64,000 nt of DNA, from assembly GCA_964464605.1 (NCBI GenBank), contig CAYXJN010000001.1, positions 131,068 to 195,067 of the forward strand, written 5' to 3'. The position numbers were made by a program. The DNA comes from an uncultured Ignavibacteriales bacterium. Its GTDB lineage: Bacteria > Zixibacteria > MSB-5A5 > GN15 > FEB-12. How positions within the stretch are numbered: position 1 is the first letter of the stretch; each line of letters opens with the position of its first letter. This document shows positions 36,001-39,000 of this stretch, in pieces.

Positions 36001-39000
36001 AGGGTCGGTGACGACGTTCCGGTTGATCTGAGTCTGAACGTGACGGTTCATACGCAGGACGCGGTCGTTCCGGCGGTAAAGCCGGAAGCGATGAAATGGG
36101 CAGCGCAGTTCGAATCAAGCGTTCGATATCGCGAACATCTTTTTTCTGATCGAAGGTCGCAAAAGAGATCGCGCGTCCCAAGCGTCCGGCGCGGCCGGTA
36201 CGGCCAATACGGTGCACGTAATCTTCGGAATTGGACGGCAGGTCATAATTGATTACGATTTCAATGCCGGTAACATCGATTCCCCGTGCGGCAATATCGG
36301 TCGCAATAAGAATACGATATTTACCGGATTTGAATCCTTCGAGCGCCTCACGTCGCTGCGCTAAACTGCGGTTGGAGTGAATTTCGGCAGCAGTGTAATC
36401 TGCGGTTTTCATCTGCCGTGTCAGCTTTTTCGCACCATGTTTGGTGCGGGTGAAAACAAGAATCGGACCTGGATATTGATTCAAGACGACTTCCAGAAGA
36501 CGAGTCTTTGAGCCTTTATCGACAAAGAAAACTTCCTGCGTAACTTTTTCGGCGGCTGTTCCCGGTGGAGCGATTTCGACGTTGATCGGAAGCTCCATAT
36601 GCTTTTTTGCAATCGAAACAATCTCCGACGGCATAGTAGCGGAAAACAGCATTGTCTGTCGATTGCTGGGAATCGCACTTAGAATTTTATTTATCTGCGG
36701 CGCAAAGCCCATGTCGAGCATCCGGTCCGCCTCATCCAAAACAAGAATGTGCACATCATGCAAATGTACGATGCGCTGGTCGAAGTGATCTATCAACCGA
36801 CCCGGTGTCGCGATAATAATGCGCGGCTGCTTTTCAAGGGCGCGTTTTTGATGATACATCGATTCCCCGCCGATCAACACCGCCGTCCGCATACCGATCG
36901 CGCGGCAAAACGGCTGCAATGCCTGATCGACCTGCAACGCCAGTTCACGGGTGGGCAACAGCACAAGCCCGCGACCTTTTATCTGCGCAAGCCGCTGGAT
37001 CATCGGAATACCGAAGGCGAGAGTTTTGCCGGTACCGGTTTGGGCGATGGCAATAATATCTTTGCCTTCAATACCGATCGGTATCGACTGTCTTTGGACC
37101 GGCGTTGGGGTAGTGAATTTCAAATGGTCAATGACATCGAGCAACTTCGGCGCGATGCCAAGACCGGTAAATCCGTTGGAAGTTTGTTTTACGTTCATTT
37201 AGGCTCATCTCCGGGATTCATCCGGAAAGAAGCACCCGAAATGAAACAACAGGAAAAATGGTTCAGATTAACGGGAATACCACTCAACGATGTGGTGCTC
37301 GTCGCAAATCACCGGAATATCCATACGTTCCGGTTCACCCATTCTGCGGATAGTGCAGCTTGCTTTGTCGAGGTCGACATACGGAACAGTCGCTCCGCGT
37401 TTGAGACCTTCGAGCACATGCGGCATATTGCGACCTTTATCACTGAGCGTGATAACATCGCCGACTCTGACCATATATCCGGAAATCGTGACGCGCTGGC
37501 CGTTAACGAACACATGACGGTGATTGATAACCTGACGGGCCGCTAAAAACGTCGGCACAACGCCGGAGCGAACGAGAGTGGCATCAAGGCGTTCATCGAG
37601 CAAACGAATCAGATTCGTTCCGGTATCACCTTTGAGGCGAAGCGCTTCTTTGAATGTGCGTTTGAGCACTTTGTCGGTAATCATGAACTGAAAGCGGAGT
37701 TTCTGCTTTTCGCGAAGCTGGGTCGCATACACGGACTGGTTGGTCCGGCTGGTGGGGCCATGCTGTCCCGGGACAGTCGGGCGTTTTTCTAACACTTTTG
37801 CGGTCTTTGGAGAGAGCGCAACTCCCAAGCGACGGGCAACTTTGCCAAGCGGCTGCGTGTACTTCACTTCCTAATAACTCCTGTTCAGTTCTTCATCTAC
37901 CTATTGTTCGATGAAACAATGTTTGATTTAAAAATCGGACATGCATAATACGAAACTCTGTGGATAACTGTCAAGGGCAGGCCGGGAATAAACCGGCAGA
38001 TTGGTATACGGGAAGTAAAGCCTATTGCCTATCAATAACTTACACGACTCGGTTCGCGGCGGTAATGTTTCCAGCTCAGCACGTCCAGTTCCTTTTGCCC
38101 CATCCGGTGGAGTGATTCCGCTAGCCGCTGGGCGAGCTGTAAGTTGGTAATAAGCGGGATACCGTAGTCGACTGAGGTACGCCGGATCAGGTAACCGTTG
38201 CTGAGTTCTTCGCGGGTGAAGTCTTTGGGGATGTTAATTACCAAATCGACTTTCCGTTCTTTGATGTATTCAAGCGCGTTCGGACTGCCACCTTCGAGCG
38301 GCCAGTGGAGCGTCGTCGCATTGACACCGTGCTGCTGCAAAAACGCAGCCGTTCCGGCGGTGGCAAAAAATTCGACACCATGTTCCGCCATAATCAACGC
38401 GCTTTCCATGAAGGCGGCTTTGTTTTCAATCGGGCCTGTGGATAAGAGTACTTTTTTGATCGGTAAACGGTAGCCGACAGCGATCAACGCTTTCAGAAAT
38501 GCTTCATCAAAATCTCGGCCCAAACAGGCAACTTCACCAGTGGATGCCATTTCGACACCAAGGGTCGGATCGGCACCTTCCAAACGGCTGAATGAAAACT
38601 GCGGCGCTTTAACCCCGACATAATCGAGCTCCATAAAGGAATGCTCATCGGCATCGCACGGGCGACCCATCATGACTCGGGTAGCAGCTTCCACAAAGTT
38701 GCGTCGCAAGACTTTCGAGACAAACGGGAAACTCCGTGATGCTCGCAAATTACATTCGATAACCATCACACGATTCTGTTTTGCCAAAAACTGAATATTG
38801 AAGGGACCATTAATCGACAACGACTGCGCGACTTCAGTGGTGACACGGCGAATTTGGCGCATCGTTTCCAAATAGGTGCGCTGCGGCGGCAATACAAGAG
38901 TCGCATCACCGGAATGGACACCGGCATTTTCGACATGCTCCGACACCGCCCAGCAAATCAACTCACCATCACGGGCGACAGCATCGACATCGATCTCTTT

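Follow-up and report, generated by a model that had tools for sequence, protein, structure and literature searches.

Probable xenologous displacement of the operon-encoded ribosomal protein uS4 by a stand-alone zinc-free form in a lineage of Zixibacteria

uS4, the product of rpsD, is one of the primary binding proteins of 16S rRNA and initiates assembly of the 30S subunit. A survey of the genome of an uncultured member of the Zixibacteria (assembly GCA_964464605.1) had reported that its only uS4 gene lies outside the ribosomal operon and resembles proteins of other phyla. This raises the question of how such a gene came to be the sole source of an essential ribosomal protein. The locus was analyzed in a window, namely, a stretch of 64,000 nucleotides of contig CAYXJN010000001.1 (positions 131,068 to 195,067), and coordinates given below without a contig label refer to this window.

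A single uS4 gene outside the ribosomal operon

The 199-amino-acid ORF in question (g00152; Table 1), which begins with a GTG codon, encodes a full-length bacterial uS4. Its product was recognized by the Pfam families Ribosomal_S4 (PF00163, 74 bits) and S4 domain (PF01479, 58 bits) as well as by the uS4 equivalogs NF003717 (197.9 bits; curated cut-off 116) and TIGR01017 (186.0 bits versus a cut-off of 177.2, covering profile positions 1 to 200 of 200). When all 18 contigs of the 2.8-Mb genome were scanned in six frames, this gene was the single TIGR01017 match above the cut-off, confirming that it is the sole uS4 gene, and three further matches (E 1e-4 to 0.1; 40 to 54 of the 200 profile positions) covered the S4 domain only. 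The assembly is of the metagenome type and was rated 100% complete and 0% contaminated. The rpsD product presumably functions in the ribosome and, as the only uS4 of the cell, must nucleate 30S assembly on the 16S rRNA of this organism.

The ribosomal operon was found on contig C2 in the order secY-adk-map-infA-L36-S13-S11-rpoA-L17. Between the end of S11 (L006:6064) and the start of rpoA (L006:6021) is a gap of 42 nt, which corresponds to C2:182021-182062, exactly where the survey had placed it. The order S13-S11-S4-rpoA-L17 that had been claimed for the relatives was present in all 29 loci examined. In seven relatives of the same family, the spacers measured 28 to 47 nt between S11 and S4 and 29 to 34 nt between S4 and rpoA; this genome has a single S11-rpoA spacer of 42 nt, with GGAAGGAG ahead of rpoA. 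When compared with the 29 loci, identities amounted to 65-77% for S13, 63-81% for S11, 55-75% for rpoA, and 42-75% for L17, but only to 36-41% for S4, in agreement with the earlier claim that S4 is far less conserved than S13 and S11.

ORFs and Pfam domains of both flanks verified that rpsD lies between two native genes, carB and a DEAD-box RNA helicase gene that starts 69 nt past the rpsD stop. The C-terminal 449 amino acids of carB share 69-76% identity with sequences in 7 of the 45 family genomes, and helicase matches at E<=1e-100 were obtained in 25 of the 45 (53-75% identity). It had also been stated that both genes adjoin in a relative without S4 between them. Such an arrangement does occur in 1 of the 25 helicase loci (G010), but the carB-like gene at that site is only 39% identical to carB of this genome, and the helicase lies away from carB in the remaining 24. 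Since this synteny is not conserved in the family, no empty insertion site can be defined. Neither repeats bracketing rpsD nor an integrase or transposase among its neighboring genes were found. The GC3 of rpsD (0.58) is indistinguishable from that of the host ribosomal genes (0.51-0.59), and base composition thus provides no independent sign of a foreign origin.

The spacer between carB and rpsD contains a sigma-70-like site that may drive rpsD, with a predicted transcription start near 37938; the site is a consensus match only, and a scan of the region yielded 2 such sites versus 1.1 expected from shuffles. The leader matched no Rfam family at E<=1 and revealed no known rpsD leader RNA, and its predicted fold was no better than those of shuffled sequences (z 0.37). 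A 258-nt contig from an RNA library (metatranscriptome) covers positions 37149-37406 and spans the rpsD-helicase junction, which is no proof of transcription.

Table 1. Features of the rpsD locus in the window
Feature	Position	Strand	Basis
DEAD-box RNA helicase, native downstream neighbor	35873..37198	-	Pfam DEAD + Helicase_C
rpsD, stand-alone uS4, assigned to the zinc-free C-(IV) type	37268..37867	-	ORF, Pfam, NCBIfam, type signatures
Leader, about 77 nt, no recognized regulatory RNA	37868..37944	-	Rfam, folding
Shine-Dalgarno AGGAG, 10 nt ahead of the GTG start	37878..37882	-	sequence reading
Putative sigma-70-like promoter, TTGACA-18 nt-TATTAT, carB-rpsD spacer	37945..37974	-	consensus match 11/12
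carB, native upstream neighbor	38032..41244	-	Pfam CPSase domains

Type and phylogenetic position of the protein

According to the portions of the study by Chen, Roberts, and Luthey-Schulten (2009, BMC Evol Biol 9:179, PMC3087516) that are drawn on here, uS4 proteins of the C-(IV) subtype are characterized by the absence of zinc-binding cysteines and of an indel, by a PGxHG motif, by an RRxG motif with Leu or Phe, and by Gly or Pro at "residue 21"; PGxHG is absent in C-(V), and RRxG has Glu in C+ proteins. The rpsD product has no cysteines, including none in its N-terminal 60 residues, and the Zn-ribbon indel is absent, with a 6-column gap exactly opposite GSRCxS of the Zixibacteria C+ proteins (the indel, which bears the second pair of cysteines, comprises seven residues in the cited text of PMC3087516 and six in the present alignment). 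PGQHG and P20 are present, as is RRLG, where Zixibacteria have RREG; P20 was matched to "residue 21" of PMC3087516 on the basis of an apparent one-residue numbering offset. Judged by these signatures, which agree on every point examined, the protein is a C-(IV) uS4. The uS4 of the relatives is of the C+ type, with a four-cysteine N-terminus (CxxC...CxxxxC), in the 29 loci, with a shortened three-cysteine form in genus g48.

A uS4 match was obtained in 179 of 183 other Zixibacteria genomes, none of them exceeding 43% identity to the rpsD product, and a second uS4 type, or both types together, was found in none of the 183. These genomes were covered by a phylum sample, in which all 120 genomes had one uS4 match, and by the other genomes of the family (103 of 107 with one match, likewise at 34-43% identity). 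The identities of 34-43% in all 120 sampled genomes are practically those of the survey's finding (34-42%). Pairwise identity among native Zixibacteria uS4 proteins ranges from 62 to 86%, or from 77 to 86% inside the family, versus 38-42% with the rpsD product.

The phylogeny of uS4 is incongruent with that of the organism. In a FastTree analysis of 445 rows, 29 Zixibacteria sequences formed one clade (support 98), and the rpsD product was placed in a clade of 11 rows (100). A careful maximum-likelihood IQ-TREE analysis of 76 rows recovered the Zixibacteria clade and the clade of the rpsD product as separate groups, each with 100/99 support. A quick tree of these 76 rows had the Zixibacteria clade nested in C+ proteins, next to Marinimicrobia, and the clade of the rpsD product among stand-alone C- proteins. 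As a control, concatenated S13, S11, rpoA, and L17 placed the genome inside its own family f1 (SH-aLRT 100).

Together with the sequence P0001, which, like P0271, P0273, and P0274, represents a 95%-identical protein, the rpsD product is nested in a 29-row non-Zixibacteria clade (99). The members of this clade belong to about 28 protein clusters, share 48-57% identity with the rpsD product, and scored 282-351 bits against the clade profile, the next match being at 237 bits. Only one member of the 28-cluster sister clade is named, as "MAG: Bdellovibrionales bacterium", which is the label of the NCBI submitter. The Bdellovibrionota_C that the survey had named as the best-matching taxon could be compared with this result only indirectly, through that label. 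The donor was probably a lineage of which this Bdellovibrionales MAG is the only named member. Given that the nearest homologs reach only 48-57% identity and that the branch to the rpsD product and P0001 is long (0.47-0.49), either the actual donor has not been sampled or the transfer took place long ago. Pattern scans of genome and metagenome contigs gave 33-44% identity among the matches listed, with none from the 48-57% clade, and the ESM Atlas contained generic uS4 clusters only. The phylum of G121 ("Deltaproteobacteria MED660") was rejected as donor, with identities of <=43% in 80 of 81 genomes, as was a phage vector, since a scan of viral contigs provided no close match, only 3 of 38-40% identity.

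Proposed history and alternative explanations

In line with the survey's finding, we consider it highly probable that the essential uS4 gene of this lineage was displaced by a horizontally acquired xenolog, a reading that is supported by the maximum-likelihood tree, the AU test described below, the type signatures, the control tree, and the search of 183 genomes. In the ancestor of the genus, a zinc-ribbon (C+) uS4 typical of Zixibacteria would have been located between rpsK (S11) and rpoA. Horizontal transfer would have introduced a C-(IV) uS4 gene, zinc free and stand-alone, which would be the one now found between carB and the helicase gene, equipped with its own promoter-like site and Shine-Dalgarno sequence. 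The operon copy would later have been deleted cleanly, leaving the 42-nt S11-rpoA spacer that keeps a Shine-Dalgarno sequence for rpoA.

An ancient paralogy is the most durable of the alternatives, but it is improbable. An early ancestor of the Zixibacteria would have had a C+ gene in the operon and a stand-alone C-(IV) gene, with the C- form kept in this genus only and the C+ form in all other lineages. Both types do coexist in other phyla, as illustrated by G121 and G122, each of which has a C+ operon gene and a stand-alone C- copy, and 26 multi-copy genomes are listed by Chen et al. (PMC3087516). Yet this genome is nested in family f1 and none of the 183 other genomes has a C- form, so that many independent losses would be needed; furthermore, the rpsD product is nested inside a non-Zixibacteria clade.

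Even less probable is an exit of the native gene from the operon followed by extremely rapid divergence in which the zinc ribbon was lost. The shortened three-cysteine ribbon of genus g48, where the gene is still in place, indicates that the ribbon can decay, and the end branch of this genome in the concatenated ribosomal-gene tree is long (0.27, versus 0.08-0.16 in its family peers). These observations have to be set against an AU test that, under the model used, rejected a common clade of the Zixibacteria proteins, the rpsD product, and P0001 (delta lnL 124.2, p 1.4e-9). Outside the Zn-ribbon region (residues 45-199), the rpsD product shares 39-44% identity with the native Zixibacteria proteins versus 48-56% with members of the foreign clade. 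The rpsD product moreover combines the exact C-(IV) indel state with the RRLG and P signatures, and an independent origin of the indel and the signature residues is argued to be unlikely in the cited part of PMC3087516.

A chimera at the uS4 gene or at the operon gap, with the native S4 really being present, is barely credible: the assembly is indeed metagenome derived, in 18 contigs, and the S11-rpoA junction is known from it alone, but no second uS4 exists in a genome of this rated completeness, and rpsD is situated 168 kb into a 449-kb contig with flanks 69-76% identical to Zixibacteria orthologs. A 99.8-kb contig (run X1, study P1) and a 132-kb contig (run X9, study P3) both contain the whole stretch of 3001 nt at the locus without a single difference, and no more than one of them can be the source of this assembly. 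Contigs from two studies thus carry the rpsD locus unchanged, and it is not an assembly artefact. In addition, small contigs of run X14 (study P5) bridge both rpsD junctions, and the exact rpsD protein is encoded on 17 contigs, with variants of 5-10 changed residues also existing.

A zinc-sparing paralog under Zur control was rejected on the basis of gene content, no search for a Zur box having been made. The genome has a single uS4 with no C+ partner, and S14, L31, L32, L33, and L36 are single and cysteine bearing; genome-wide zinc sparing is also rejected, since the cysteines are retained in these five zinc-ribbon proteins. Makarova and colleagues are said to have described, in 2001, Zur-regulated zinc-free paralogs of L31, L33, S14, S18, and L36. 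Such paralogs are summarized in PMC3087516. As in the present case, a C- version stands in for the C+ version of a ribosomal protein with a zinc ribbon, but Zur-regulated paralogs are conditional second copies beside the C+ gene, which is gone here.

Precedents and significance

A precedent is "path B" of Chen et al. (PMC3087516), in which a C-(IV) S4 gene is transferred into a C+ genome and the C+ gene of the alpha operon is then lost; Finegoldia magna and Methylobacillus flagellatus are named as cases. As in path B, the relatives have a C+ gene in the operon, the sole copy present here is of the C-(IV) type and lies outside an operon without S4, and the S4 tree is incongruent with the phylogeny of the organism; the neighboring genes here track the host. 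Unlike those cases, the Zixibacteria represent a new phylum in this context, and the swap is confined to one genus among 184 genomes. The donor clade is also different, the C-(IV) source of M. flagellatus being likely cyanobacterial according to the same text. A two-copy intermediate would be supportive of path B, without being a defining feature. Because none was found among the 183 other Zixibacteria genomes, none of which belongs to this genus, we only infer that gain preceded loss. The transfer was probably into this lineage.

The literature searched contained no paper joining Zixibacteria with ribosomal protein S4 and none for rpsD combined with xenologous and ribosomal protein, and a match for Zixibacteria and rpsD seemed unrelated from its listing. 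The locus is best described as a well-supported new example of the kind of swap first described in 2009: it extends that picture to the Zixibacteria and reveals no new mechanism. In this one genus of a candidate phylum, a core translation gene appears to have been exchanged for a counterpart from another phylum, with the deletion scar and the new locus both intact. The lineage also offers a bracketed setting in which the exchangeability of uS4 can be examined. There is also a practical consequence: rpsD is a marker in concatenated phylogenies (TIGR01017 presumably forms part of the GTDB bacterial marker set) and ought to be masked in phylogenetic placements of this lineage.

A broader reading, which we regard as unlikely, is that the stand-alone C-(IV) rpsD is a self-sufficient module of promoter, Shine-Dalgarno sequence, and gene that is still moving between phyla and may be co-expressed with the helicase. 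A Bdellovibrionales-like uS4 may then have taken over 30S assembly on Zixibacteria 16S rRNA, and rpsD and the adjacent DEAD-box helicase gene may form a small ribosome-assembly unit. If true, the locus would be a well-bracketed natural experiment on the interchangeability of a primary rRNA-binding protein and would also inform on the regulation of the alpha operon once S4 has left it.

The closest solved structures are the 200-amino-acid uS4 chains 7nhn_e and 8uu4_d, followed by 5nd8_d and 3j9w_AD, all aligned end to end (E 2e-43 to 1e-38), which we take to be the uS4 of Listeria, Staphylococcus, and Bacillus. Bacilli encode rpsD as a single-gene unit away from the alpha operon. A stand-alone rpsD in these bacteria agrees with the C-(IV) list of PMC3087516. 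The proteins of Bacilli and the one described here are both about 200 amino acids long and zinc free, but the stand-alone state is ancient and phylum-wide in Bacilli, whereas it would be a lineage-specific replacement in this genus of Zixibacteria.

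A single uS4 gene away from the ribosomal operon

The only uS4 gene (rpsD) of this Zixibacteria genome lies between carB and the gene of a DEAD-box helicase, as the survey's finding had stated, and this was confirmed by the open reading frame, Pfam, NCBIfam and a six-frame scan. Pfam recognized an N-terminal Ribosomal_S4 domain as well as the S4 domain in the protein, which also scored above the cut-offs of both NCBIfam uS4 equivalog models along their full extent, TIGR01017 (186.0 bits; cut-off 177.2) and NF003717 (197.9 bits; cut-off 116). Across the 18 contigs (2.82 Mb), the scan detected no second uS4; three weaker matches corresponded only to the S4 domain of larger ORFs. 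The assembly is rated 100% complete and 0% contaminated. On the minus strand, which encodes all of these genes, rpsD is preceded by carA-carB and followed after 69 nt by the helicase gene. On the opposite strand, a 265-aa ORF (36749-37546, +) overlaps the 5' end of the helicase gene and the 3' half of rpsD; most probably it is a shadow ORF created by these two genes.

Features of the rpsD locus, and identities between operon products of this genome and 29 Zixibacteria loci
Feature	Window position	Strand	Identity	Remark
rpsD	37268-37867	-		199-aa ORF, GTG start, complete bacterial uS4
Sigma-70-like promoter match	37974-37945			TTGACA-18 nt-TATTAT, carB-rpsD spacer; 11/12 consensus matches
S13			65-77%
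S11			63-81%
S4			36-41%
rpoA			55-75%
L17			42-75%

The rpsD locus is real. For a 3001-nt stretch that extends from the 5' part of the helicase gene through rpsD into the 3' part of carB, four studies had runs with full word share, and the stretch was found with 0 differences inside a 99.8-kb contig (run X1) and a 132-kb contig (run X9); since these two runs belong to different studies, at most one of them can be the source of the assembly under study. In a fifth study (run X14), small contigs bridge both junctions of the locus. The exact protein has been recorded on 17 contigs, and variants differing by 5-10 residues exist.

The alpha-operon region is found outside the window on contig C2, with the order secY-adk-map-infA-L36-S13-S11-rpoA-L17. 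The 42-nt gap reported earlier, which separates the stop codon of S11 from the start codon of rpoA, was recovered at the same coordinates (C2:182021-182062), a junction without S4 that is based on a single assembly and the absence of a second uS4. This scar retains the rpoA Shine-Dalgarno sequence (GGAAGGAG) and is equivalent to about one ordinary spacer, the spacers around S4 in relatives being 28-47 nt plus 29-34 nt.

Native uS4 in relatives and the zinc-ribbon type

All 29 Zixibacteria loci share the order S13-S11-S4-rpoA-L17. The rpoA and L17 products of this genome showed their highest identities to loci of its own family, f1, whereas S4 showed no such gradient. Each of 120 sampled Zixibacteria genomes contained one uS4 match, with 34-43% identity to the window's protein. 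The same range was obtained for the single matches in 103 of the 107 other family genomes; the remaining 4, without a match, are incomplete (78-86% complete), and none of the 107 had two uS4 types. Taken together, 179 of 183 other Zixibacteria genomes had a uS4 match, none close to the window's gene; among 184 genomes, the foreign uS4 is confined to a single genus. Native uS4 proteins of Zixibacteria share 62-86% identity with one another (77-86% within the family), and a vertically inherited copy would therefore be expected to show about double the similarity found here. In one 82%-complete family genome (G211:C4:341519-342024), the uS4 match was split into two weak neighboring pieces (E 8e-9 and 1e-12), which lie in open frames of 127 and 141 aa; a frameshift, pseudogene or misassembly may be the cause.

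Zixibacteria uS4 proteins carry an N-terminal CxxC...CxxxxC zinc ribbon (C+ type). The window's uS4 has no N-terminal cysteine, lacks the indel bearing the second cysteine pair, has RRLG where C+ proteins have RREG, contains Pro at the position referred to in the literature as residue 21, and retains PGQHG. In passages of Chen et al. (PMC3087516), the zinc-free C-(IV) type is defined by cysteine absence, indel absence, RRxG, residue 21 and PGxHG, and by its sequence the window's protein is assignable to this type. Reduced zinc use is proposed there as an effect of C+ S4 loss. In this genome S14, L31, L32, L33 and L36 are each single and cysteine-bearing, so that the genome as a whole has not gone over to zinc-free ribosomal proteins; the uS4 swap may be neutral. 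Genus g48 of another family, f5 (L008-L013, L017, L018), has a 203-aa operon uS4 (around 1501-2103 of each locus) with a shortened ribbon region, MCRRLGEKVCDSLKCP, in which three cysteines and RRLG are found; here the ribbon seems to have decayed independently while the gene kept its location.

Phylogeny and origin of the foreign gene

The replacement of the native uS4 by a horizontally acquired copy, as proposed in the survey, is supported by uS4 trees, an AU test, the type signatures and an operon control tree. In a FastTree analysis of 445 uS4 sequences, the 29 Zixibacteria proteins formed one exclusive clade (98) and the query grouped with metagenome proteins in a clade of 11 rows (100). 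An IQ-TREE analysis (LG+C20+F+G4 PMSF, 76 rows x 205 columns) supported both the Zixibacteria clade and a ten-row query clade at 100/99. A quick tree of the same 76 rows placed Zixibacteria among C+ proteins, beside Marinimicrobia, as vertical descent predicts, and the query clade in the other half, among stand-alone C- proteins of Chloroflexota, Thermomicrobiota, Acidobacteriota, Actinomycetota, and Kiritimatiellota or Verrucomicrobiota. Forcing the query and P0001, a 95%-identical protein, to group with 12 Zixibacteria rows cost 124.2 log-likelihood units (p-AU 1.4e-9). The phylogenetic signal extends beyond the ribbon, because residues 45-199 show the same contrast (39-44% identity to Zixibacteria, 48-56% to the query's own clade). 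As a control, a quick tree of concatenated S13+S11+rpoA+L17 (C2:176000-190000 of this genome, L006, against L008-L036) placed this genome inside family f1 (SH-aLRT 100). Its end branch measured 0.27, a two- to threefold excess over the 0.08-0.16 of seven family peers, and translation/transcription genes of its genus seem to be faster-evolving.

A single-sequence search yielded a single cluster at 95% identity and seven at 48-57%, with no other above 47%; in a set of 1.84 billion 50%-identity representatives, the top match reached 54% and the second 45%. A search with a profile of the small query clade retrieved about 28 clusters at 282-351 bits, the score then dropping to 237 bits; a single one of these clusters bears a name, 'MAG: 30S ribosomal protein S4 [Bdellovibrionales bacterium]'. 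When a quick tree was rooted on C+ proteins, the query and P0001 lay inside a 29-row clade (99), sister (92) to a 24-row subclade with this MAG, while three rows branch earlier. This fits the Bdellovibrionota_C best matches of the survey as agreement, not proof, the name being one submitter's label. The best named-genome matches (39-44%) are stand-alone in all 24 top loci (L037-L060), a state that is uncertain for the 11 near a contig end. Two uS4 genes each are present in a 'Deltaproteobacteria MED660' MAG (G121; L197/L042, L210) and a Chloroflexia MAG (G122; L211/L037, L209), namely, a C+ one in the operon order S13-S11-S4-rpoA-L17 and a stand-alone C- one that shares 41-43% identity with the window's protein; no such two-copy state was seen in Zixibacteria. 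The rpsD gene has the base composition of host ribosomal genes (GC 0.535, GC3 0.58) and the branch to the query and P0001 is long (0.47-0.49); therefore, either the transfer lies some way back or its true donor has yet to be sampled.

This kind of swap is already known, and the present genome is a clean, well-bracketed further case. Passages of PMC3087516 name Finegoldia magna and Methylobacillus flagellatus as such cases and whole groups such as Alphaproteobacteria as ancient ones, and give Bdellovibrio bacteriovorus as one of the genomes that hold both a C+ and a C-(IV) copy. No report linking Zixibacteria to ribosomal protein S4 was found in the literature searched.

Expression signals and neighboring genes

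uS4 binds 16S rRNA and starts 30S assembly. Because the window's protein is the sole uS4, both functions are required of it, and it would be expected to bind the host 16S rRNA and start 30S assembly. AGGAG is located 10 nt ahead of the rpsD GTG start. The rpsD leader (about 77 nt) matched no Rfam family and folded no better than shuffles, and no terminator-like site was found between rpsD and the helicase gene. A 258-nt contig from a sludge metatranscriptome library (run X17), with 0 differences to 37149-37406, reaches from the 3' end of rpsD across the 69-nt spacer into the start of the helicase gene; this one RNA-library contig is no more than a hint of read-through or co-transcription of rpsD and the helicase gene. 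Only 7 of 45 other family genomes yielded a carB of the type present here (38032-41244), with 69-76% identity over the last 449 aa (L239-L245; E<=1e-100), and the carB-like gene adjoining the helicase gene in another genome (G010) is only 39% identical to the window's carB; carB is therefore patchy or of two types in the family.
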